From Deinococcales bacterium (GTDB lineage: Bacteria; Deinococcota; Deinococci; Deinococcales; JAAFIG01), in assembly GCA_031418155.1 (NCBI GenBank), contig JANOWZ010000417.1, forward strand, positions 1-15,931: a stretch of 15,931 bases of DNA. The letters run 5' to 3'. Shown here piece by piece: positions 2,969 to 15,732 of the stretch. Both the position numbers and the translations under genes were made by a program. Every line of letters begins with the position of its first letter. Positions within the stretch are counted from its first letter, which is position 1. Under the pieces are notes generated by a model that was given only the letters and a program-made list of their open reading frames with translations, did not search any database and had not been told where the DNA came from.

Positions 2969-5119
2969 TCATCGCTTGCTGGCTTTAACCTCCCCGAGTG
3001 CGTTCTCGAGGTCGGATTGTGTTATCTCGAGGCTAATGCTTTCGTTGTCACCAGTTTCTTTCGTTGAATTAGGTATCGAGGCCACAATTGCGTTCTTGGC
3101 GAGGTGAGCTTGCAAGACCAGCATTGCCGCGCGTCGCACCAACCATTCGAGGTCGGCACCGCTCCAACCCTCTGTCTTTGCGGCCAGGGCATCCAGATTA
3201 AGCTCGCCAGCCGTCGCACGACCCCTCAAATGCACACCGAGGATTTCTGCCCGGTCCGATTCACTTGGCAATTTGAACTCGAGCACCTGTTCAAAGCGCC
3301 CAGGACGCAGTAAAGCCGGATCGAGCGATTCGGGCCGATTCGTTGCGCCCAAAATGATCACGTTCCCAAGACTCGAGATGCCATCCATTTCGGCCAGGAA
3401 TTGACCAATCACCCGGCTCGAGACGGCATCCGCATCGGCACGGTTCGCCAACAATGCGTCGATCTCGTCGAAGAAGACCACGCACGGGGCGCTGGCTCGG
3501 GCCTTGCGGAAGAGTTCGCGCACGGCCTTCTCGGACTCGCCGTAGTACCTCGAGAGAAATTGAGCACCACGCACGGCGATGAAATTCGCCTCGGATTCTT
3601 TGGCGACAGCCCGTGCCGTCAACGTCTTGCCGGTTCCGGGAGGACCCGCCAGCAAGATTCCACGCGGAGGCTCGAGCCGGAGTTGCGCGAACAATTCAGG
3701 GTGCTTGAGGGGAGCCTCGACCGCCTCGATCAATGCGGCTTTGACCTCAGACAAACCACCGATCTCCGTCCAACTCGCACCGGCAATATCGGATTCGGTC
3801 TCGCGGATCAAACTCGGTGAAACCTCACGCAGGGCTGCACGGAAATCCTCCACGCCAACCTCGAGTTGCAACATTTCCTGCGCACTCGGACCTCGACCTG
3901 AGGCCGTCCACGTTGGCAACTGTGAACGGACGCGGTGCATTCCAGCCTCTCGAGCCAAGGCCGCCAAATCCGCACCGACAAAGCCGTGTGTGATTCGCGC
4001 CAAGTCATCCAAATTCACGTCCGGCATCAATGGCATCGCCCGCGTGTGAACCTCAAGGATTTCGCGCCTGCCTTTTGCATCCGGCGGATTGATGACCACT
4101 TCGCGGTCAAACCGTCCGGGCCGACGCAAGGCCGGATCGAGGTTGTCCGGCAGGTTGGTCGCACCGATCACCACGACCTGACCGCGCCCGCCGAGGCCAT
4201 CCATCAACGAGAGGAGTTGCGCAACGACACGCTTCTCGACCTCGCCCTGAACCTCAGAACGCTTCGGACCAATCGCGTCGATCTCGTCCAAGAAAATAAT
4301 GCTCGGGGCTTTCGCTCGAGCCTCCTGAAAAATTTCGCGCAAACGCTTTTCCGAATCCCCATAAAACTTGCCAATGATTTCCGGGCCAGCCACCGAAATG
4401 AAATGCGCCCGTGTCTCACGCGCCACGGCTCGAGCAATCGTGGTCTTGCCGGTTCCGGGCGGGCCGTACAACAACACCCCTTTCGGAGGATCGATTCCCA
4501 ACTGCTCGAACACCTGCGGATAACGCAATGGCAACTCGACCAACTCGCGGACTCGAGCAACCTCACGCGATAAACCGCCGATGTCCTCGTAGCTTGCGCT
4601 CGAAGAAGATTGGGCTGGAGCTTGCGCCTCGCCGGAATTCTCGAGCGCCAAACGCGACTCGCCTCCGACCAACGCATGCGATCCAGGCTCGATGGATTTC
4701 ACCCGCAACTCCAATACCTTCGAGCCGAACAACTCCACGCGAACCCGATCACCCGCCGTCAACGCACGGTCCTGCAACAACGTCTTCAAATCCGAGATTG
4801 CCACGCCCGCACCAGAAATCACCTCGAGCACCACGCTCCGTGCCAAGACCGGCTCGAGTCTTGCAACACGCACTTTCGCACCGATGCTCGAACCCGCATT
4901 TTCTCGGGCCAAACCATCCAGCAACACGCCACGATCACGGTCCTCGGGTCTGGACGGCAACGCACGAACCGCCGTGCTGCGCTCACCCGTGACGACAATC
5001 ACACCACCGGCACGCACGCCCAAACGCTCGAGGTCGGCAGGGGACAGGCGGGCGAGGCCACGGCCCGCATCACGCGGCGCGGCCTCGGCGACGACGATCT
5101 CGAGGGCATCGATTACCAT
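2969..5119 (-). CDS. CDC48/VAT/p97-like AAA+ ATPase (N-domain plus two AAA modules)
   Basis: A CDC48-type N-domain ([21 protein letters not shown]) is followed by two complete AAA cassettes. D1 has [16 protein letters not shown] and [23 protein letters not shown]2 has [18 protein letters not shown] and [21 protein letters not shown]. The ORF track begins at a TTG (5131). The first ATG is at 5119. Confidence 0.85.
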
Positions 5120-5233
5120 GTTGGGTTCCAATTGCGGTTCTGTCGTAGGGGCATCGTGTAATGCACGCTGTTGCGTGACGCATGCCTCGCCCCTACATTC
5201 GCGTTCGCCGAATCAACAACTTGCATCAAACCC

Positions 5234-5725
5234 TCAACCCGCGAACGGAACCATCAACTCGAGGATTCCGTTCTGATAAGACTTCGTGAATTCACCTTTG
5301 ACGGCTTTGGAAAGCTCGAGCGTCTTCGCGTACTTGCGTGCCGCTGCACCGTTCGCTTCAAGCTTCAAGGTTTGTCCCTCGAGCGTGACTTGAATGCTGC
5401 TTTCAACCGCGCCTGGAAGTTCGGCAATCACGCTGTAATGTCCGGTTTCCTCTAGCACGTCAACCATCGGTTCGCGCACGGGTTCGACGCTGGGGTTGCC
5501 ACCGTTGTTCGCCATGTTGCCGAATGTGGAGACGGTCGGTTCACCATTTAAGTTCGTGCGAATGTTGACCCCGATCACACCCTCGAGTCCAGATTTTGTC
5601 GTGAAATTCTGCGTGCCGCCTTCAGCGTTTCCCGCCTGTTTTTGCAATTCTTGAACGACCTCGAGAAGATTGTTGATACCGGAAAAAATTCCGCCAAGTC
5701 CGCTGTTGTCGTTGGTTTTCGCCAT
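5234..5725 (-). CDS. Hsp20/alpha-crystallin family small heat-shock protein (GvpH-like)
   Basis: The alpha-crystallin domain is recognisable: VDVLEETGHYSVIAELPGAVESSIQVTLEGQTLKLEA ... KSYQNGILELMVP. An AGGAGA ribosome-binding site lies about 9 nt upstream of the ATG. The N-terminal region is Gly/Asn-rich. Confidence 0.75.
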   Translation of the reverse strand: MAKTNDNSGLGGIFSGINNLLEVVQELQKQAGNAEGGTQNFTTKSGLEGVIGVNIRTNLNGEPTVSTFGNMANNGGNPSVEPVREPMVDVLEETGHYSVIAELPGAVESSIQVTLEGQTLKLEANGAAARKYAKTLELSKAVKGEFTKSYQNGILELMVPFAG

Positions 5726-6235: not shown

Positions 6236-7240
6236 TTACAACGTCATGGCGCGTGATGGTTTGCGTTCACCACCGGCAAGCACGGGCTCGCGGATCTCGA
6301 GGATTTCCGTGCGTTCTGCTGTACGCTCGAGTGGTTTGATGGTGCGGGCTTTCGGCAAGAGGTGCAGCATTTTGGCAACCGCTTGGCTCGAGACGGTATG
6401 GCGTTCGTGTTCGTCGCTGATGCTGCCGGTCAGGACATCCAAAACCACGCGCTCGAACTCAAGGTTTCCGGCGCTGACTTCAAGGTTGCGGACGCTGGCT
6501 ACTCGAGCGATTTGCAGTGCGGCGCGAACGCTGTGTTTGATTTTCAGTTTGCTTTCGCCACGCACGCTGGCGACCAGTTCGGTGATGGCGAGCGCATCTT
6601 CGAGTTGCAATCCTGATCGGGCGGCAACAATTCCGCCTTGCGTCTCGAGGTCGAATCCCTCTAAACGCATGGTCACTAGGCGATCACGCAAGGCTTCTTG
6701 CGCGAGGTGCACTCCGGCGTAATCTTCCGGGTTGCTGGTGAAAATCGCTCGGAAGTCCGGGTGAACTTTCATGTACCCGCCCTTGCCCGCCGCGCTCGGG
6801 TAGATCAAAATACCTTCCTCGAGCACCGGCAACAGGACGTTGTTCGCTTCGGCTTTGGAGCGTGTGAACTCGTCATAAACGAGCGTGTAACCGTTCTTGC
6901 AGGCAATCGTCAGTCGTTCATCGACCCAGGAATTGCTGGAATCTTCGTCCACTTTCAAAACGCTGTGGATGTAGTTGTCCACGACTTTGCGGCGGCGAAA
7001 TCCGTTGTTCGCGCCCAGCAAATTGCTGGAACCAAACTCGTTGTCACCGGCGATCAGCACCATCGGGCGGCCCAGTTTCGTGGCGACATGCAACGCGAGT
7101 GTGGTTTTTCCGGTGCCGCTCGCGCCTTCAAAGTTCACGCCGAGGCCAGCCTCGAGATATCCCAAAGCGCGTTTGGTCAGGTCTTTGACCTGCGCGGTTT
7201 CAACGAAATCTTCGCGCTGTTTGGTGCTGATTTGACTCAT
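6236..7240 (-). CDS. gvpN: Gas vesicle protein GvpN (MoxR-like AAA+ ATPase)
   Basis: FVETAQVKDLTKRALGYLEAGLGVNFEGASGTGKTTLALHVATKLGRPMVLIAGDNEF matches the conserved GvpN N-terminus and Walker A closely. Walker B VYDEFTRS is present. The ATG overlaps the upstream stop (ATGA at 7237..7240). Confidence 0.9.
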   Translation of the reverse strand: MSQISTKQREDFVETAQVKDLTKRALGYLEAGLGVNFEGASGTGKTTLALHVATKLGRPMVLIAGDNEFGSSNLLGANNGFRRRKVVDNYIHSVLKVDEDSSNSWVDERLTIACKNGYTLVYDEFTRSKAEANNVLLPVLEEGILIYPSAAGKGGYMKVHPDFRAIFTSNPEDYAGVHLAQEALRDRLVTMRLEGFDLETQGGIVAARSGLQLEDALAITELVASVRGESKLKIKHSVRAALQIARVASVRNLEVSAGNLEFERVVLDVLTGSISDEHERHTVSSQAVAKMLHLLPKARTIKPLERTAERTEILEIREPVLAGGERKPSRAMTL

Positions 7241-7983
7241 GCGCCACTCGAGACGTAACCGTTATCGGAAAGTTTGATTTTGCCGCTGGCGACAAGGCGT
7301 TTGAGCATCGTGGCAACTTCGCTTTGATCGAGTTTCAAGCCTTGTGCGAGGTCCTCGAGTGACAATCCTGGAACGCTCGAGATGGTGCGCAAGACGATGT
7401 GCTCGCGGCGTTTCTCGACTGGGTTCAGCACGGCAACGCCGACGGAAAGAGCGCCCTGCGGCATTGGTTTGGCGGCAGGCTTGCTGGCTGGACGGGCCGC
7501 ACGCACGACTGGTTTGACATCCGATCCGCGCATTTGACGGGCGAATCCCTCGAGTTGTTCACGCATGACCGCACGTGCGGTGGCGTGAGCCTCGAGCAAT
7601 TGACCTGTTTCGGCACTGAGCGTTTCGCGTTCACTGGCGCGTTTGCTGGCATCACGGCGGGCGCTCGAGATTCGTTTTGCACCTTGAGCGGCAAGTGTTT
7701 CTTGCACCGTGGCTTTGCGTTGGTTGTTTTCGTGTGCGCGATCAGTTGCGCGTTGAGCGCCCTGGGTGCTGCGAATCTCCGCGATAATCTCGAGCTTCGC
7801 ATGAACGGCTTGCGCTTGGGTTGCAACCTCGTTTGCACGGGCGATGTGTTCAACGGCGCGGATGGTACTTGCCGCCACGAATTCTTCGCGGCGTTCCTGA
7901 TCAAAATTCAGGCGGTCGCTGGCGGATTTGTTCAGTTTCTCGCGCAGTGCGGCTCCAGCCTGGTCATCTAATGTCATCGGCAT
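7237..7983 (-). CDS. Hypothetical coiled-coil protein with KPAAKP-type linker and C-terminal winged-helix-like domain; gene directly downstream of gvpA (possible GvpC-like structural or regulatory role)
   Basis: It is Ala/Glu/Arg/Gln-rich and predicted helical over roughly the first 150 aa. A VKPVVRAARPASKPAAKPMP linker follows. The C-terminus HIVLRTISSVPGLSLEDLAQGLKLDQSEVATMLKRLVASGKIKLSDNGYV resembles a winged-helix (LexA/ArsR-like) fold. The ribosome-binding site is AAAGGTGA. Confidence 0.55.
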   Translation of the reverse strand: MPMTLDDQAGAALREKLNKSASDRLNFDQERREEFVAASTIRAVEHIARANEVATQAQAVHAKLEIIAEIRSTQGAQRATDRAHENNQRKATVQETLAAQGAKRISSARRDASKRASERETLSAETGQLLEAHATARAVMREQLEGFARQMRGSDVKPVVRAARPASKPAAKPMPQGALSVGVAVLNPVEKRREHIVLRTISSVPGLSLEDLAQGLKLDQSEVATMLKRLVASGKIKLSDNGYVSSGA

Positions 7984-8196: not shown

Positions 8197-8415
8197 TCAG
8201 ACTGCTGGTGCGGCGACCGTCGAGGTCAAACCGATGGCTTCGGCGTACTTCAAGTACGTCTCGACCGATGCAGCAACGACGCGGGCTTCGATGGCGATCA
8301 ATTCGATGCCGACCAGTGAGACGCGGGCGAATGCGTCGATGACGATGCCTTTGTCCAGGATGCGGTCCACAACTTCGCCGAGGCTCGAGGAGTTCATGCT
8401 TTTTTCGACTGCCAT
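8197..8415 (-). CDS. gvpA: Gas vesicle structural protein GvpA
   Basis: [64 protein letters not shown] is a near-consensus GvpA (72 aa). The ATG at 8415 is preceded by a GGAGGT ribosome-binding site. The ORF-track entry 8197..8592 is an in-frame upstream extension with no support. Confidence 0.95.
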
Positions 8416-8840
8416 ATGTACCTCCGTAAAATTTGAATTCTTGGTTCTTGCCCAGGGATAAATGGGGCGATGTTGGGAAAAGAGGTTCAAGAATTCTTTT
8501 GGGTGTTTTTCCGGTTCTTGCCGGTGTGTGAATGGTGCACCCTCGAGCAAGGTTTGAGTAAGCCTCTTCTGGGTATTGGGTATACCCCCCATTTGGGTAT
8601 GCCCGTTTGGGGCTGGTCAAGTTGCGGTCTCGCGCCTACTTTGTTTGGACTCGGAACTGTGGCAAAACTTGTGTGATGCACAGTATTTGTGGGTTCCGCT
8701 ACAGTTTGGTGGTTTGAAAGAATTTTGCAAGAGATGGTTCGGCAAACTGAAGCTCTGGCAAGGGCGAAAAGTTGAACAGGGCTTCTACAAGTTCAGGCCG
8801 ATAAGTTCCAGGCCAGCAGCACAACGAAAGGGGGCGTGAG
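8416..8840. promoter_or_regulatory. About 425 bp divergent regulatory region between gvpA (-) and the acidic E2-like gene (+)
   Basis: It holds no convincing ORF. It contains the GGGTATACCC palindrome plus two more GGGTAT half-sites (about 8570..8606), direct repeats GGTTCTTGCC (8443..8452 and 8513..8522) each near GAATTCTT, and TTGAAC hexamers on both divergent sense strands. Confidence 0.5.
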
Positions 8841-10661
8841 TTGAGTACACGAGGATTCGGCGACACAGACTGGACCGACGGGTTTTCTCGACCGTGGGAT
8901 GTTTCCGTGGCATCATTTGAAGCCATCGAAACCGACCTGGACGAGTTGATCGACCCGGACGGGATCGAGTCTGCATTGGCCATCGACGATCAGGGGAATT
9001 TCCTCGCCTGGATGGATTCGGAACGCGGGATGGCTCCAGTGCCGCTCGCGGCTTCAGAGTTCGAGGCTCCGGTGGCGCAAGATTTGAACGCGCCAGCGGC
9101 GAAAGTGTCTAAGGGTTTCAAACGGTTCACGCCGCCAGTTCCGGTGGTTGAGCCCAGCGAACCGACGACCTATCAGGCCAGCAGCGAGGCGATTGATGCG
9201 GTGTTTGCCGAACTCGAGGCGAGCGCCAAAGCCAGCACAGAACAGTCAGATGCACCCGAGGTTGAGGCGCAGGCAGATGTTCAGGTTCAGGCCGATTCGG
9301 ACATTTATGCTGAGGTCCATTCTGAAGATCAAGACGATCAGGGTGCGGTTGAAGCAAAGGCCAAGAAGCCAAAAATTGATCCGATGGCGCTCGAGGATGC
9401 GTTCGAGAGTGTGCCGTTTGACCTTCCAGAGTTGATGGGCGAACAGTCTGGCACTGTACTCAGTGAGCAACCTGTCGCGCTCGAGGGTGAAGCGGAGGCG
9501 GTCGAAGCTCAGGCAGAAGTTGAACTCCCAGCAGTTGAAGCTCAGGCAGAAGTGGTCGAGGTTGAAGTTCCAGCAATCGAAGCTCAGGTTGAAGTTGTTG
9601 AGGCCGAAGCAATTGTCATTCCCGAGGGCGAACCGGTCGAACCCGTCGCCGCCTGGAAGAAGCCCGTCAAACCCAAAAAGCAACCCAGCGAATTTGGCAT
9701 CGACGAAGTTCCACTCGAAGCGCTGCTCGAGATTGCGAATACCGAGGCCGAAGACGAAGAGAATCATGCCGAGGCCGAAGCCGTCACGATTGACCTGCAA
9801 CCCGAGGCGGATGCGCTTGCCGCAGTTGGCTTGGGCGAAGCAAGCCTTCAGGAAGGCATCATGGCCGCTTACGAGATGGAGGGTGCGCCAATCACCGATT
9901 TGAGCGCATTGATCGAGAGCAGCAAAGCACTCGAGGTTTCAACCGCCCGTGAAGCGGTCAACGAACCGGTCGCCACACCCGTTCATGCCGGATTTGTTGC
10001 TACTGCTGAAAGCAATGAATCGCCAGAGGCCGTGCTCCAGGCGCTCGAGACCAGCGTGCTCGGATTTGAAACACCAGAGATTCAACCGCTCGATGCAGAA
10101 CTCGAAACGGATTCCAGCGTCGCGGCAGTGCTGGCCCCAGAAATCATGAATGTCCCGATGATGCCCGCGACGACCACGTTGCGCCGTCACTTCGACGCGA
10201 CCGACCTGATCGAAGCGCAGATTCGTTTGCGTCACGCACTGCGCCCATTGGACGTTTCGATGGTCTCGCTCTTGGGTCGCGCCGCCGAACGTTGCGCCCT
10301 CGAGTTGCCGGGAATCAAAACGATTGCACTCGCCGAACTCGGCGACAATGGGATTGCAGTCACCGCCAAGATCAAAGCCGTCGAAAGCTTCCGCGAGATG
10401 CTTGCGGGCATCAGCGAGGGCTCGAGCGGCGTTCGTGGCGACCTGAGCGTCGTTGACATCAGCGACCTCGGCTTGGATGAAGTGGTCTTGCCACTCGCCG
10501 GACCGCACCTCTTGCTGACCCGTCTTTCGCCACACCCGGACAAACCGGGTCGCATGCGCGGCACGGTCTCTCTCTCTGGCCTCGTGAACCTTCGCGCTGG
10601 CGCATCATTCCTCGATCAGGTCGTCTCGAAACTCGAGGCTCCGATCACGCTGATGGTCTGA
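8841..10661 (+). CDS. Acidic tandem-repeat protein with a C-terminal 2-oxoacid dehydrogenase E2 acyltransferase (CAT-like) catalytic-domain homologue lacking the catalytic His/Asp
   Basis: A TTG start is preceded by an AAAGGGGG ribosome-binding site. The N-terminal roughly 430 aa are highly acidic and low-complexity with EAQAEV-type repeats. The C-terminal roughly 170 aa align to the E2 catalytic domain: RRHFDATDLIEAQIRLRH against HFDKTDITELEAFRK, VVDISDLGLDEV against FTISSIGGLG, and TVSLSGLVNLRAGASFLDQVVSKLEAP against ISLSFDHRVIDGADGARFI. In that alignment DHR is replaced by LVN. Confidence 0.7.
   Translation: MSTRGFGDTDWTDGFSRPWDVSVASFEAIETDLDELIDPDGIESALAIDDQGNFLAWMDSERGMAPVPLAASEFEAPVAQDLNAPAAKVSKGFKRFTPPVPVVEPSEPTTYQASSEAIDAVFAELEASAKASTEQSDAPEVEAQADVQVQADSDIYAEVHSEDQDDQGAVEAKAKKPKIDPMALEDAFESVPFDLPELMGEQSGTVLSEQPVALEGEAEAVEAQAEVELPAVEAQAEVVEVEVPAIEAQVEVVEAEAIVIPEGEPVEPVAAWKKPVKPKKQPSEFGIDEVPLEALLEIANTEAEDEENHAEAEAVTIDLQPEADALAAVGLGEASLQEGIMAAYEMEGAPITDLSALIESSKALEVSTAREAVNEPVATPVHAGFVATAESNESPEAVLQALETSVLGFETPEIQPLDAELETDSSVAAVLAPEIMNVPMMPATTTLRRHFDATDLIEAQIRLRHALRPLDVSMVSLLGRAAERCALELPGIKTIALAELGDNGIAVTAKIKAVESFREMLAGISEGSSGVRGDLSVVDISDLGLDEVVLPLAGPHLLLTRLSPHPDKPGRMRGTVSLSGLVNLRAGASFLDQVVSKLEAPITLMV
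9500..9620 (+). repeat. Imperfect tandem DNA repeat (about 3 units of 33 to 42 nt, core GAAGCTCAGGCAGAAGT) encoding VEAQAEV(V/E) repeats
   Basis: GAAGCTCAGG(C/T)(A/T)GAAGT recurs at about 9506, 9540 and 9582. Confidence 0.6.
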
Positions 10662-10689
10662 TGATGACGAACTTTCATCAATTCTCGGC

Positions 10690-10758
10690 TGTGCTAGACG
10701 CGAACAAGAATTTCTCGAGCAATATTTTAAAAATTATCATGCAGTGGAAAGGAAACAT
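10690..10758 (+). promoter_or_regulatory. AT-rich segment (TTTCTCGAGCAATATTTTAAAAATTATCATG) upstream of the HD-GYP gene; candidate promoter
   Basis: The local AT-richness is unusual in a window of roughly 58% GC. It lies directly upstream of the GGAAAGGAAA ribosome-binding site and the ATG at 10759. No exact -35/-10 assignment is made. Confidence 0.3.
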
Positions 10759-11403
10759 ATGAGTGATCTCTTCAGAGACGGTTTCATTGACGAGATCGTT
10801 GATGCCTACGTCAAGGACTTCGGCGACCGCGTGGAAAACACCGACCGCTTCGAGCACTACTCCCCAGGACATGCCCGTCGTGTAGCCGAAACCAGCGTCG
10901 CCATCTGCGAAGGTTTGGATTTCGAGGAAGAAGACATTCGCGTCGTCAAAACCGCCGGGTTGCTCCACGACATCGGCGAGGTCATTCAAAAGCACGCCTT
11001 CTACGGCGCACCTCGAGTCTTGACCCCAGAAGAAACCGTTGAGATGTGGCAACACAGCCTGATCGGTGAACGCGAAGTGGCACGTCGCGGTTTTGGACGC
11101 AAAGAACAGTTGCTGGTGCGTTGGCATCACGAACGCTGGAACGGTCAGGGCTACCCGGACATGCTGTTCGGACCCGACTTGCCGCTCGGTGCTCGCATCA
11201 TCCGTTTGGCGGACACCTGGGATGCGCTGACAAACGACCGTCCGTGGCGTTTGGCGATGTCTGAAGCCGATGCGCTCGAGGAGATCAAACTCGGTGCAGG
11301 CATGGAGTTCGATCCAGAACTCGTCGGCTTGTTCCTCGAGTTGCACCAATGCGGAGCCTTGATCCCAAGTGAAAACTTCGCCATCTCAGGAGGCAAACGA
11401 TGA
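10759..11403 (+). CDS. HD-GYP domain protein (stand-alone cyclic-di-nucleotide phosphodiesterase-like)
   Basis: The HD motif (LLHDIGEV) and the HD-GYP signature WHHERWNGQGYPD are both present. The start is assigned to the ATG at 10759, 5 nt after the GGAAAGGAAA ribosome-binding site. The ORF track begins at a GTG at 10744. Confidence 0.8.
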   Translation: MSDLFRDGFIDEIVDAYVKDFGDRVENTDRFEHYSPGHARRVAETSVAICEGLDFEEEDIRVVKTAGLLHDIGEVIQKHAFYGAPRVLTPEETVEMWQHSLIGEREVARRGFGRKEQLLVRWHHERWNGQGYPDMLFGPDLPLGARIIRLADTWDALTNDRPWRLAMSEADALEEIKLGAGMEFDPELVGLFLELHQCGALIPSENFAISGGKR

Positions 11404-12338
11404 GTGGCGTCAAAGAATACGTCGGCGCAGAAGTCATGCTGCTCTCAAAAGTCCTCAAGCTCGAGAGTGTCGCCGTACCCTTCGGTGGACGCAACCCAAT
11501 GTGGCTCGGCTGGTGGATGAAGACTTTGGGCAAGAGCGTGCACATGAACGACCTGTTGCACTTTTCATACATGGACTCGGTCGGCCTGATCGAAAACGAA
11601 GGCTTCTTGTTGGACGGCGACACCCTCGGCGAACTGACCAAAGACATCGGCGACGGCAAGCAACTGACCAACCCAGAACTCGCCCGTCTCGTCCCAATGC
11701 AAGACGCATACTTCTTTGATCAACTTCGTCCACGCATCGAAAAACTGCCAGCCCGTCAAAAAGGTATCGCCATTCGAGCCGGATACAACACCATGCGATA
11801 CGCCCAAGTCATGGACTCCTCGAGATTCGTGAACCTGCGCGTCTCCCTCGACAAAGTCTTCGCCCGTGAAGTCGAAGAGATCAACAAGCGCATCACCTCG
11901 AGCGGCAAAGGCCAAGCGTACATGGAAGAGGCCGGAAGCTTCGTCGGCAACGTTCGCGCCAGCGCCCTGTACATGCAACTGCCAAGCATGGGCGGCTTCA
12001 GCACCGAATACGCTGCGGGCGCACGTCCACGCGGACCACTCGGACGCGAAATCTGGGCACGCGGCCCAAGCAAAACCTGGATGCCAGAACTGAAGGCCGC
12101 CACCAAAGGCACCTTCGGCGACCGCTTCACCTCACGCGAAGCGTACTTCAAAATGGTCTCGGAATTCCTCGAGAAAGCCAACGATTACCCAGTCTGGGTG
12201 TTCAACCTCGAAGAAAGCGAATACCCCGATGTCCTGCGTGCCGTGATGCAGTTCCGTAAGCCAAAAGCCGTGCATCGTTTTGACACACGCGAAGCGAGCG
12301 GCGGGTACATGAGCTACTTCTTGATCGCAGAGAAATAA
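11400..12338 (+). CDS. Dam-like (D12-class N6-adenine methyltransferase fold) protein with a non-canonical motif IV (MQLPS in place of DPPY); translationally coupled to the HD-GYP gene
   Basis: An ATGA overlap with the HD-GYP stop spans 11400..11403. Residue patterns parallel E. coli Dam: KEYVGAEVMLLSKVL against KWAGGKYPLLDDI, VPFGGR against PFVGAG, HMNDLLHFSYM against ADINSDLISLY, and RAGYNTMRYA against NRYGYNGLCRYN. The position expected for DPPY reads YMQLPSMGG. No [DNS]PP[YFW] occurs anywhere in the protein. Confidence 0.5.
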   Translation: MSGVKEYVGAEVMLLSKVLKLESVAVPFGGRNPMWLGWWMKTLGKSVHMNDLLHFSYMDSVGLIENEGFLLDGDTLGELTKDIGDGKQLTNPELARLVPMQDAYFFDQLRPRIEKLPARQKGIAIRAGYNTMRYAQVMDSSRFVNLRVSLDKVFAREVEEINKRITSSGKGQAYMEEAGSFVGNVRASALYMQLPSMGGFSTEYAAGARPRGPLGREIWARGPSKTWMPELKAATKGTFGDRFTSREAYFKMVSEFLEKANDYPVWVFNLEESEYPDVLRAVMQFRKPKAVHRFDTREASGGYMSYFLIAEK

Positions 12339-12365
12339 GCTCGAGAATTTAACAAGCTGAATCAT

Positions 12366-12399
12366 TTCCCGCTCGAGGTTTGGGCGGGGAATTTTGTTG
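12366..12399 (+). terminator. Putative rho-independent terminator after the Dam-like gene
   Basis: The stem TTCCCGC..GCGGGGAA with loop TCGAGGTTTGG is followed by AATTTTGTT. Confidence 0.4.
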
Positions 12400-12509: not shown

Positions 12510-14291
12510 ATGTTTGTGCCCGTAGATAGAGTGCCCGCTCCGGCGAATGGATTTTTCGGAACTCGAAGCAGAACATTTTTTTCGTATTACAAACCTTATC
12601 GGCGCTTGCTCTATACCGACCTGGCTTGCGCATTCGTTGTCTCGGCGATCACCCTGATCCTGCCATTGTGCGCAAGTTACGTCACCAAGAACGTGCTCGA
12701 GGGAAATCATCCCGATGCGCTCGGGCAAATTTTACTGGTGGGTGCTTTGATGCTGGCGCTGGTTATGGCTTACACGTTTTGCAACACCTTCGTTTCTTAC
12801 CAAGGTCACATGATGGGAACCCTGATGGAAGCAGACATGCGCCGCGACCTGTTTGCGCAGTACCAAACGTTATCGTTTGGTTTTTACGATGGGCAACGAA
12901 CGGGACAGTTGATGTCGCGCCTGACCAACGACCTTTACAACATCGGTGAGTTTGCGCACCACGGCCCAGAAGACCTCGCCATTGCCGTGGTGAAATTCGC
13001 CGGGGTCTTCGCCATTCTCTTGAGTGTGAATGTCCAGTTGACTGCGGTGGTGTTCTTGCTTTTCCCAGTGATGCTGCTCTGGGCATTGTATTTTAATCGC
13101 AAAATGAATCAGGCGCTGCGAGCCATGCGGCAACGCATCGGCGATGTCAATGCACAGGTGGAGGACACGCTTGCAGGGATTCGCGTGGCGCAGTCGTTCA
13201 GCAACGAACAGCAGGAACAAGCAAAGTTTGACCTTCAGAACCACCGTTTCGTTGAAAGTATGCGTGAAGGTCACAAAAGCGAGGCGTACTTCTCGAGTGG
13301 CATAACGGCTTTCAGTCAACTCTTGACGGTGGTGATCGTGGTTTTTGGTGGCCTTGCCATCGCCAATGTTTCGTTGGGTTTGCCAGATTTGGTGACATAC
13401 CTGCTGTACGTTGCCGTTCTGGTCGATCCGATTCAGCGGTTCGTGAATTTTGCCAGGGTCTTTCAGGAGGGCAGCACTGGTTTTGAGCGCTTCATGGAAA
13501 TCATGGAACTCGAGCCAGAGATTCAAGATGCCGACAACACGAGAGAACTCACTCAGGTTAGAGGGCAGGTACAATTTCAGGCGGTCAGTTTCAAATACGC
13601 CGAGGATTCTGAGAATGTGCTCGAGCAGCTTTCCTTGGACATCAAGGCTGGCGAGTTCGTCGCGCTGGTTGGGCCTTCTGGTGTTGGCAAGACCACACTC
13701 TGTTCGTTGATTCCACGGTTTTACGACGTGACTGAGGGACAAATTCTGCTCGATGGTCAGGACATCAAAGGCATTGCGTTGCAATCGCTCAGGCGGCAGA
13801 TCGGCGTGGTTCAGCAAGATGTCTACCTATTCGCCGGGACCGTCTTGGAAAATATTCGCTACGGTAAGCTCGAGGCCAGTCTGGAAGAGGTCATGGAGGC
13901 GGCCAAAAAAGCCAACGCCCACGGTTTCATCATGGCGCTGCCGAACGGATACGACACCGATGTTGGGCAGCGCGGCGTAAAACTTTCGGGCGGACAGAAG
14001 CAACGCCTGAGCATCGCTCGAGTCTTTTTGAAGAATCCACCGATCATCATTTTTGACGAGGCGACAAGCGCCCTGGACAACGAGAGCGAAAAGGCGATCC
14101 AGGATTCCCTCGAGACCCTGAGCAACAACCGCACCACCCTGGTCATCGCGCACCGGTTGTGCACTGTGCGAAACGCGCAACGAATCCTGGTCCTGACCGA
14201 TGGCGGCATTGCTGAACAGGGCACACACGCGGAACTGATCGCGGCGGGTGGGACGTATGCGAATTTGTACAACACGCGACTCAGCATGTAA
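12510..14291 (+). CDS. ABC transporter, fused permease/ATP-binding protein (MsbA/exporter type)
   Basis: The N-terminal transmembrane region begins YYKPYRRLLYTDLACAFVVSAITLILP. The C-terminal NBD carries Walker A GPSGVGKTT, signature LSGGQKQRLSIAR, Walker B IIIFDEATSALD and H-loop IAHRL. A GTG at 12516 is an alternative start with better ribosome-binding-site spacing. Confidence 0.9.
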   Translation: MFVPVDRVPAPANGFFGTRSRTFFSYYKPYRRLLYTDLACAFVVSAITLILPLCASYVTKNVLEGNHPDALGQILLVGALMLALVMAYTFCNTFVSYQGHMMGTLMEADMRRDLFAQYQTLSFGFYDGQRTGQLMSRLTNDLYNIGEFAHHGPEDLAIAVVKFAGVFAILLSVNVQLTAVVFLLFPVMLLWALYFNRKMNQALRAMRQRIGDVNAQVEDTLAGIRVAQSFSNEQQEQAKFDLQNHRFVESMREGHKSEAYFSSGITAFSQLLTVVIVVFGGLAIANVSLGLPDLVTYLLYVAVLVDPIQRFVNFARVFQEGSTGFERFMEIMELEPEIQDADNTRELTQVRGQVQFQAVSFKYAEDSENVLEQLSLDIKAGEFVALVGPSGVGKTTLCSLIPRFYDVTEGQILLDGQDIKGIALQSLRRQIGVVQQDVYLFAGTVLENIRYGKLEASLEEVMEAAKKANAHGFIMALPNGYDTDVGQRGVKLSGGQKQRLSIARVFLKNPPIIIFDEATSALDNESEKAIQDSLETLSNNRTTLVIAHRLCTVRNAQRILVLTDGGIAEQGTHAELIAAGGTYANLYNTRLSM

Positions 14292-14430
14292 GGCTCGAGC
14301 CCTGTACGACGCGGGGCGTTTCAAATCGTCCGGCTGACTGATTTCGATGGCCCGGAGCGGGCAGTGCCGATTGTGCAATGATGCTGCAAGATGTTGTCCC
14401 AAGCTGAACCGCTGGGAGAGAGGCACAATC

Positions 14431-15732
14431 ATGGCTCACGCCTTTCCCCGACCGCAACGGCCAAATGCTGACACGAAACTTGCCGCAAGACCGTTGACAC
14501 TCGAGTTGTACGGCCCACCGGGAGGTCTGCCCGAAGTGGCACTCGAGGCTGAACGCATCGTGGCGAACCCTTGGAAACCGCACAAGTTTGCGGCGAACAT
14601 CATCGCGGGTCGAGGTTTCGTGCGGGTGCGCAACGCCTCGTGGGAACTCGCCTGCGAACTCGCGTCACGGTTGAGCACGGTTCACGATGTCCGCTTGATG
14701 CTGATCGACACCCGAGTGCAACACTGGCATGACCTCGAGCTTGCCTTGAAACGTTCCACTTGGGCGGACGTGCTGCCCGATGGGGTCAACCTGAAATTAC
14801 ACGCCAAAGCCGGGCCGGGAACTTGCCCGCACGCGGGGCACCTCGAGGAGATCGCGCAAAAGTTTTTTGAATCTCGAGGCTTCACGGTGATCGAGGATGA
14901 ACCGAGCATTCGCGTGGACCTCGAGACGTTTGCCGATCATTTTCGCGTTCGGGTCAGTTTGGGCAACGATGCGCTGCACAAACGCGGCTGGCGGGCCGTG
15001 ACGGGAACACTCGCCACCCTACGCGAAGACATCGCCTGTGCCGCCCTGATGCGACTCTCCGTGTTTGAACCTCGAGCGTTGCAGGCGAGTCAGATCAGCG
15101 TTCCGTTCGCGGGCAGTGGCACGCTCGGGATCGAAACTTGGCACGCTTTGAACGGACTGCCGCCCGCAGTTTGGGATGTGGAACGCCCGTGGCAATACTT
15201 GCTCGAGCCGAAAGAAACAACGATCTCATGGTGGCGCAAACGCACCTTGCGGGCCGCACTTGAGGCGAAACTACCAACAATCAAATTTGTTGAACGCGAT
15301 GCACGACAGGCCGAGGAACTGACGGCGAACATGGTTTTTGCGCAGGCGAAACTCGAGGAATTCGGCCTGGTCTTTGCCGATGTCGAACTGATCGAGGAAG
15401 ATGTCTTCAAACTGCCGAACGAGGAAATGGCCCCGGCGGGTCAAGTCACCTTGCTGCCGTTGCATCCACCGTATGGCCTGCGCCTCGGCAGCCAGGATGA
15501 GGCGGTCACGATTTACTCGAGGCTCGGGCGTTCCGTGCAGGCTTGGGGCGAAAACGCGACTCGAGCCAAAATCCAGGTGGACGGTGGTGCGCTGATTGGG
15601 TTCTGTTTGTGCGGCGATGAAGCCTCATGGCGGGCGTTCATGGGTGGACTCAAAACAGCCCGATCTGAAACGAGTCACATCACCCAAGGTGGTTTGGACG
15701 TGCGCGTGGTCTGTTTCGAGTTCTCAATGTAA
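14431..15732 (+). CDS. THUMP-domain class I SAM-dependent RNA methyltransferase (RlmL/Trm14-like, COG0116 family)
   Basis: The N-terminal ferredoxin-like/THUMP region is followed by SAM-binding motif I (VPFAGSGTLGIE) and motif IV LLPLHPPYGLRLG. The start is assigned to the ATG at 14431, after a GGGAGAGAGG ribosome-binding site. The ORF track begins at 14347 with no ribosome-binding site. Confidence 0.75.
   Translation: MAHAFPRPQRPNADTKLAARPLTLELYGPPGGLPEVALEAERIVANPWKPHKFAANIIAGRGFVRVRNASWELACELASRLSTVHDVRLMLIDTRVQHWHDLELALKRSTWADVLPDGVNLKLHAKAGPGTCPHAGHLEEIAQKFFESRGFTVIEDEPSIRVDLETFADHFRVRVSLGNDALHKRGWRAVTGTLATLREDIACAALMRLSVFEPRALQASQISVPFAGSGTLGIETWHALNGLPPAVWDVERPWQYLLEPKETTISWWRKRTLRAALEAKLPTIKFVERDARQAEELTANMVFAQAKLEEFGLVFADVELIEEDVFKLPNEEMAPAGQVTLLPLHPPYGLRLGSQDEAVTIYSRLGRSVQAWGENATRAKIQVDGGALIGFCLCGDEASWRAFMGGLKTARSETSHITQGGLDVRVVCFEFSM

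Follow-up and report, generated by a model that had tools for sequence, protein, structure and literature searches.

A coupled HD-GYP gene pair in Deinococcales

The stretch of DNA analysed here, referred to as the window, spans 15,931 nt of a Deinococcales metagenome-assembled genome (MAG). On its plus strand, a stand-alone HD-GYP gene without a sensor domain (10759-11403, 214 aa) runs into a second gene (11400-12338) whose 312-aa product is a catalytically degenerate protein derived from D12-class methyltransferases. We use the name psMT both for this protein and for the domain that it represents. HD-GYP and psMT form one conserved functional unit, held together by an obligate genetic coupling that includes Rosetta-stone fusions.

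The two genes meet at a junction (11388-11403) made up of AGGAGG (11388-11393), a 6-nt spacer and ATGA, in which the TGA stop codon of the HD-GYP gene (11401-11403) overlaps the ATG start codon of the psMT gene (11400-11402). This overlap, described in an earlier note made from the sequence, can be read directly, and to judge by its layout the junction is one of translational coupling. Homologues of the HD-GYP protein align from residue 1, which favours ATG 10759 as the start codon rather than GTG 10744; a purine-rich, Shine-Dalgarno-like stretch, GGAAAGGAAA, can be read just upstream (10746-10755). A consensus scan placed a terminator-like hairpin of 13 pairs followed by TTTGTTGG at 12364-12392 on the plus strand, 26 nt past the psMT stop codon. 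The operon likely ends here, although terminator-like sites are no more numerous in this region than in shuffled sequence and the position of the hairpin is the sole argument for it.

psMT descends from D12-class adenine methyltransferases

Searched alone, the 312-aa protein has no significant match in Pfam, NCBIfam, PADLOC or the PDB (the latter queried with phmmer and with a family profile), and the D12 methyltransferase model PF02086 does not match it at E <= 1. Its relatives made the connection. psMT has 22 close homologue clusters, and the related loci found in genome assemblies all come from Deinococcota MAGs (Deinococcales, Trueperaceae and others). A profile built from 20 close homologues and run against 1.8 billion cluster representatives recovered 172 relatives, and 62 of the 102 that were scanned matched PF02086 (MethyltransfD12), the best with an E-value of 4.5e-43. 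A homologue search with a wide alignment gave 33 proteins and missed the fusions described below.

Read in the register of the profile, these relatives split into two groups. The canonical, DPPY-bearing group carries Y-x-G-S-K, D-A-F-S-G-S, N-D and D-L-x-Y-x-D-P-P-Y, where the degenerate group, to which psMT belongs, has L-G-F-E, A-I-P-F-x-G, N-D and D-L-L-[FY]-x-x-[LF]-P-x. Comparison of the two group alignments with hhalign gave a probability of 99.94% and an E-value of 2.2e-37 over 301 columns, and the canonical-clade alignment matches T4 Dam and DpnM in the PDB. Ten other members of the degenerate clade also fell short of the PF02086 threshold of 22 bits, the best being P0061 (16.4 bits) and P0070 (14 bits), whose sub-threshold matches are both N-terminal. 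Because no degenerate-group member scanned passes this threshold, no curated model covers psMT.

Comparison with a single, possibly inexact E. coli Dam sequence was weak: the clade profile gave no significant hhalign result, and with the canonical-clade profile the alignment was limited to motifs X and I, at 92.7%. The D12 link therefore rests on the PF02086 matches, the PDB matches of the canonical clade and the profile-profile result. Along this chain of profiles, psMT can be traced to the D12-class N6-adenine DNA methyltransferases. The earlier note had offered the relationship as an impression, to be confirmed by a D12-class match; the match was found through profiles, where the direct Pfam search of the 312-aa protein had given none.

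The predicted structure agrees with this descent. An AF2 model computed from a 37-sequence alignment of the wider clade reached a pLDDT of 90.8 and a pTM of 0.89 (an earlier run on the 20 close homologues only, with a pLDDT of 61.7, was discarded). The model shows the strand order of class I methyltransferases and the D12 topology. Its best full-length Foldseek matches are 7m6b ('Mcbe1'), E. coli Dam and DpnM, with modest TM-scores of 0.36-0.46. A mis-assignment of the second protein, which the earlier note had allowed for, is excluded.

Among the DPPY-bearing proteins, those scoring highest with the psMT profile (P0044, P0048 and P0056) are large, at 820-1280 aa. P0044 and P0048 contain two complete D12-like domains in tandem, and P0056 has a full first domain and a partial second one.

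Catalytic motifs are lost while the protein remains under selection

The motifs that define D12 enzymes have fared unequally in psMT. At motif IV, the hhalign register aligns Q193-L194-P195-S196 (11976-11987, plus strand) with D-P-P-Y. All four residues of D-P-P-Y are 100% conserved in the canonical clade. In the degenerate clade, the first position is R, N, Y, A, Q, S, H, T or C, the second is L or F, the third is P in 100% of the members, and the fourth is variable. The window protein lacks any PP dipeptide and hence any [DNS]PP[YFW] motif, in agreement with the earlier note, and no alignment restores a functional motif IV. At motif X, column statistics and hhalign place G9-A10-E11 (11424-11432, plus strand) where the canonical proteins have G-S-K; the lysine is present in 100% of the canonical clade and is replaced by glutamate in 81% of the distant degenerate members and 100% of the Deinococcota family.

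Other positions have been retained. The motif I remnant P-F-G-G-R-N (11478-11495, plus strand) keeps F28 and G30 and has lost the leading acidic residue of the canonical D-A-F-S-G-S; across the degenerate clade the phenylalanine is conserved at 80-91% and the glycine at 89-95%, and the residue after G30 is variable. Motif II, N50-D51 (11547-11552, plus strand), with the acidic residue that ends strand 2 (residues 46-50 of the model form the preceding strand), has its aspartate in 93-100% of the degenerate clade and 100% of the canonical clade. K41 is found in 96% of the canonical relatives and in 90-100% of the degenerate clade. The earlier view that the N-terminal part tracks the D12 motifs needs correction at motif X, which is not conserved. 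Conservation confined to the degenerate clade is seen at Y134, R216, E217, W219, Y249 and R286, and the clade has a motif of its own, W-R-E-x-W-x-R-G, just past the former catalytic loop.

Class I methyltransferases bind the adenosine part of S-adenosylmethionine (SAM) through motifs I and II and receive the target amino group in a pocket formed by motif IV. What psMT has lost and kept consequently points to a loss of catalysis with an adenosine-binding site that may have been retained. On these motifs psMT is very unlikely to be an amino-methyltransferase, as the earlier note had supposed in calling it a non-methylating relative of Dam. It possibly retains, in F-x-G and N-D, the half of the cofactor pocket that receives the adenosine moiety.

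A decaying pseudogene is ruled out by the ratio of nonsynonymous to synonymous substitution (dN/dS) of psMT, close to 0.05. Measured against L005, a 2-kb contig of a Deinococcales MAG that is 99% identical over the pair, the ratio is 0.047 for psMT, at an unsaturated dS of 0.21, and 0.027 for HD-GYP. psMT is under strong purifying selection. The positive charge is lost: degenerate-clade proteins have a median net charge of -1, their DPPY-bearing relatives one of +10, and some degenerate members reach -19. The window psMT stands at +4, and together with its close relatives the range is +4 to +9.

Compared with the D12 methyltransferases represented by E. coli Dam, T4 Dam and DpnM (PF02086), with which the profile chain shows common ancestry, psMT shares the class I fold with a helical insertion between the cofactor and catalytic halves, the F-x-G of motif I, K41 and the N-D of motif II. 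It differs in having a variable x-L-P-x for DPPY and glutamate for the motif X lysine, in its lost positive charge, in scoring below the Pfam threshold and in being always coupled to HD-GYP. The name 'adenine-specific DNA methylase' is an automatic one, carried by a few members and derived from one source. Labelling these proteins as DNA adenine methylases would be an error, one of consequence to surveys of methylomes and of restriction-modification systems.

The HD-GYP protein has a complete active site

The identification of the 214-aa protein as an HD-GYP protein, already made in the earlier note, is confirmed by Pfam, where it matches HD_5 (PF13487) at 92 bits (cutoff 27.2; E-value 4.7e-26) and HD at 66.7 bits (cutoff 22; E-value 2.8e-18). 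Its top NCBIfam match is a cyclic di-GMP (c-di-GMP) phosphodiesterase family. LLHDIG and WHHERWNGQGYP are both present in the translation; the HD dyad, H70-D71, is encoded at 10966-10971 and HHERWNGQGYP at 11125-11157, both on the plus strand. The full set of residues comprises H38, H70-D71, H99, H123-H124-E125, D152 and the loop G131-Y-P133; of these, H38, H70-D71, H99, HHE and D152 are presumably the metal ligands, as HD-GYP structures suggest.

In 77 unique partner HD-GYP domains there is no variation at H38, H70, D71, H99, H123, E125 or G-Y-P (100%); 72 of the domains have H124, and all have D or E at position 152. The partner domains have the signature HHE(W/R)WNGxGYPD, with asparagine where the textbook motif has aspartate. 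A family scan of the partner proteins found no recognised sensor domains. To judge by these residues, the HD-GYP protein is a catalytically competent cyclic-dinucleotide phosphodiesterase without a sensor domain of its own, whose substrate is most likely c-di-GMP. With its catalytic residues fully conserved, the protein is no degenerate receptor.

The two domains are obligately linked

The order HD-GYP then psMT was found in 12/12 distinct Deinococcota loci, over which the identity of psMT falls from 99% to 53%. Further out, an HD-GYP gene lies immediately upstream in 7/7 distant stand-alone members with readable upstream DNA (L019-L025); an eighth, L017, is cut by a contig end and was left out of this count. 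Stop and start codons overlap or abut in the distant pairs L021, L022, L023, L024, L025 and L017. The two domains also occur in one chain: 12 cluster representatives carry HD-GYP at the N-terminus and the psMT domain at the C-terminus of a single polypeptide, with disordered linkers of roughly 50-320 residues, rich in Pro, Ala, Glu and Ser, between them.

Nearly all of the evidence is derived from metagenomes. A metagenome scan with the fusion subgroup yielded 116 relatives, for which 80 loci were fetched; 15 of these were uninformative, having at most 741 nt of upstream DNA, too short for an HD-GYP domain. HD-GYP lies directly upstream on the same strand in 65/65 informative loci, in one open reading frame in 47 and split in 18, which rules out chance adjacency. 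HD-GYP always takes the N-terminal position. The pair, whose conservation in related genomes the earlier note had proposed to check, is thus conserved far beyond them.

A rough neighbour-joining tree based on distances places the degenerate proteins in one clade apart from the DPPY clade, with the fusions scattered inside the degenerate clade. This topology suggests that catalysis was lost once and that fusion and fission were repeated. No DPPY-bearing protein in the Pfam scan is fused to HD-GYP (the gene neighbours of this sister clade were not surveyed), and the loci examined yielded no orphan psMT domain and none in a restriction-modification context.

In three split pairs (L021, 6622-8004; L022, 6644-8035; L023, 3880-5169) the HD-GYP protein keeps a disordered, Pro/Ala/Glu-rich C-terminal tail of 230-270 residues that resembles the fusion linkers, and the start of psMT overlaps the end of this tail. 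These pairs look like the recent fission of a fused gene. At another locus, L001, a single HD-GYP gene is followed by two tandem psMT copies (8787-9713 and 10001-10927) that are 95% identical, which could be either a recent duplication or an assembly artefact.

Neighbourhoods differ between subclades

The pair is the sole constant feature across the neighbourhoods of the subclades. In Deinococcales (the window, L002 and L006-L010) it diverges from a gas-vesicle cluster, which is syntenic in L002 and L006-L010; in the more distant Deinococcota loci it does not diverge from one. A split subgroup (L019, L015/L016 and L085-L104) lies in a conserved five-gene block consisting of a histidine kinase (minus strand), a PatA_N(DUF4388)-DnaJ(-TPR) protein, HD-GYP and psMT (all plus) and a HAMP-SpoIIE phosphatase (minus). 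The neighbours of the fused subgroup are varied. No mobile-element genes were seen in any locus examined, and no gene for a conserved macromolecular partner recurs across subclades in the neighbourhoods examined.

One member comes from a Blastocatellia (Acidobacteriota) MAG. The pairing holds over several bacterial phyla. Altogether, the psMT family was found in Deinococcota, Acidobacteriota (Blastocatellia) and many soil metagenomes, and only beside or fused with one HD-GYP subfamily. PatA_N proteins also occur downstream of the pair in L001 and L002.

A possible regulatory role for psMT

We give about an even chance to psMT being a non-catalytic regulatory partner of the active HD-GYP enzyme. 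The following course of events would account for the pair. psMT would have evolved once from a D12-class DNA adenine methyltransferase and would no longer be a methyltransferase; it would bind the HD-GYP protein directly and act, without catalysis of its own, as accessory subunit to a phosphodiesterase with no other input. Its most likely action would be to sense SAM, S-adenosylhomocysteine (SAH) or another adenosyl ligand and thereby switch the phosphodiesterase activity, in the manner of SAMTOR. In Deinococcales, the operon divergent from gvpA may feed into buoyancy control, a link limited to one subclade.

The identity of psMT as an adenosyl-ligand sensor is a tentative proposal. Equally provisional is the wider version of it, a new bacterial ligand sensor on a dead Dam-type fold that gates HD-GYP in response to SAM/SAH, some other adenosyl metabolite or a nucleotide second messenger. 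We rank the ligand-sensor model first because F-x-G and N-D are selectively retained and because SAMTOR provides the precedent of a methyltransferase fold acting as a SAM sensor (PMC10883374). Behind it we place tethering or targeting, then a trigger or receptor role, then residual enzyme activity, with a defence role unlikely.

Several points weigh against the sensor model. The lysine of motif X and the aspartate of motif IV lie near the methionine part of SAM in D12 enzymes, and with the change of the former to glutamate and the loss of the latter the pocket may no longer take SAM. The disordered fusion linkers of 50-320 residues would serve tethering or targeting no less well than allosteric sensing. 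The sensor domains of HD-GYP proteins are usually N-terminal, and psMT is C-terminal. Complex formation and ligand binding by psMT are inferred, like the direction of regulation and the substrate.

A somewhat unlikely alternative, which draws on the same linkers, is that psMT is a targeting or scaffold domain that binds nucleoid DNA, RNA or a protein and localises HD-GYP, depleting c-di-GMP locally. Its fold descends from DNA-binding enzymes, the mild basicity of the window protein and its close relatives would be compatible with such a role, long linkers rich in Pro, Ala, Glu and Ser are typical of tethers, and split HD-GYP partners often keep such a disordered tail. The clade-wide charge, with its median of -1 against +10 and members as low as -19, indicates that nucleic-acid binding is not general in the clade, and it weakens the idea of a DNA-recognition protein raised in the earlier note. 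The aromatic residue that stacks on the flipped base has also been lost, and the subclades share no conserved macromolecular partner gene.

Roles could also be reversed, with HD-GYP as a 'trigger' enzyme and psMT as its output, for instance regulating a target protein or gene, or with psMT as a cyclic-dinucleotide receptor. We consider this unlikely. Arginine, glutamate and aromatic residues often contact guanine, and the clade motif W-R-E-x-W-x-R-G together with Y134 and Y249 would offer such residues; the linkage is obligate, other output domains are absent, and the Deinococcales operon is divergent from the gvpA operon. Full conservation of the HD-GYP catalytic residues argues in the other direction, as does the absence from psMT of a recognisable effector surface or DNA-binding motif, and the gas-vesicle link is confined to one subclade.

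It is very unlikely that psMT is still an enzyme, either an unconventional methyltransferase or a protein with another SAM-using activity on a non-DNA substrate. Such an activity would explain the strong purifying selection and the retention of F-x-G and N-D, and would fit the methylase name given automatically to a few members by one source and the sub-threshold N-terminal PF02086 matches of P0061 and P0070. Set against this, positions 1 and 4 of motif IV vary freely, so that neither the aspartate nor the tyrosine has a conserved substitute, the motif X lysine has become glutamate, and no member scanned reaches the PF02086 threshold.

The least probable reading is the one suggested by the earlier note, an anti-phage defence or toxin-type module that pairs a second-messenger hydrolase with a DNA-recognition protein: nucleases with HD domains and proteins resembling methyltransferases are known from defence systems, and L022 has C5-methylase fragments and a faint HEPN match nearby, but PADLOC gave no meaningful match (weak generic Cas3/Cas10 HD-domain matches to HD-GYP at E >= 6e-5 and one 12.4-bit match to psMT at E 0.013), the GC content of the window is uniform, the gas-vesicle synteny is stable across Deinococcales, another subclade sits in the conserved signalling block (histidine kinase, PatA_N-DnaJ, HAMP-SpoIIE), and the neighbours in the loci examined are signalling, housekeeping and gas-vesicle genes with none from mobile elements.

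Relation to known systems

Known HD-GYP proteins such as RpfG, PmGH, PA4781 and the V-cGAPs usually carry N-terminal REC, GAF or similar sensors. The HD_5 domain of the window resembles theirs in its complete HD...H...HHE...D set and GYP loop, and differs in that HD-GYP is N-terminal here and its sole constant companion is the C-terminal or downstream psMT. The trigger phosphodiesterases PdeR and PdeL, which have an EAL domain, are c-di-GMP hydrolases that mainly control a bound partner; given their EAL catalytic fold and transcription-factor partners, the trigger mode would apply to the psMT pair as a concept only.

METTL14 and DNMT3L are non-catalytic methyltransferase-fold partners of an active methyltransferase. 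SAMTOR, a pure ligand sensor (PMC10883374), likewise resembles psMT as a methyltransferase fold that has stayed under selection in a regulatory role after catalysis was lost. All three belong to unrelated eukaryotic lineages, and METTL14 and DNMT3L partner a methyltransferase, whereas psMT partners a phosphodiesterase.

Our literature search for an HD-GYP protein with a methylase-derived partner found no description of one. psMT is a domain family without a model in any library searched, and the module is apparently undescribed. Its novelty lies within the HD-GYP signalling proteins and the methyltransferase-fold pseudoenzymes and does not amount to a new category.

The regulation of HD-GYP proteins is much less understood than that of GGDEF and EAL proteins, and stand-alone HD-GYP proteins have no obvious input. 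The pairing with psMT suggests that this signalling enzyme has an accessory subunit not recognised before, and would offer a clear bacterial example of a methyltransferase that became a pseudoenzyme and was taken into second-messenger signalling. As a two-protein system, it is directly testable. If psMT is a sensor, c-di-GMP levels would be tied directly to the status of the methyl cycle or of nucleotides, and in Deinococcales the buoyancy given by gas vesicles might be as well.

Other genes of the window

GC content is even across the window, at 0.53-0.60, with no island signature. The gas-vesicle cluster appears complete and occupies positions 83 to ~8415 of the minus strand. It contains gvpA (~8197-8415, within the listed open reading frame 8197-8592), a MarR-type winged-helix (wHTH) protein (7237-7983), GvpN (6236-7240), an Hsp20-like protein (5234-5725), a CDC48-like double AAA+ ATPase (2969-5131) and three GvpF/L paralogues (2008-2952, 1217-2011 and 83-886), the first of them fused to a J domain. 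J domains recur in this fusion and in the PatA_N-DnaJ protein of the five-gene block.

Three plus-strand genes diverge from the cluster, HD-GYP and psMT being preceded by a similarly oriented gene for a 606-aa protein (8841-10661), separated from the HD-GYP gene by 97 nt. This protein has an acidic low-complexity centre of ~350 residues rich in Glu, Ala and Val, and a conserved C-terminal part of ~140-210 residues that is 42-48% identical to the proteins encoded at the matching place before HD-GYP in L002 (409 aa) and L001 (138 aa). Family and PDB searches with the 606-aa protein returned no match, and an impression that its C-terminus resembles the acyltransferase catalytic domain of a 2-oxoacid dehydrogenase E2 was unsupported when checked. 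In Deinococcota the operon may include this gene as a third member.

Beyond the hairpin, the plus strand encodes an ABC exporter-type protein with transmembrane and ATPase domains (12510-14291) and a 461-aa protein with a UPF0020/RlmKL-like methyltransferase domain (14347-15732; E 1.3e-6). Neither gene is conserved beside the pair in other loci. The exporter-type gene has a PADLOC match to 'mad3', which resembles a generic match to an ABC ATPase.

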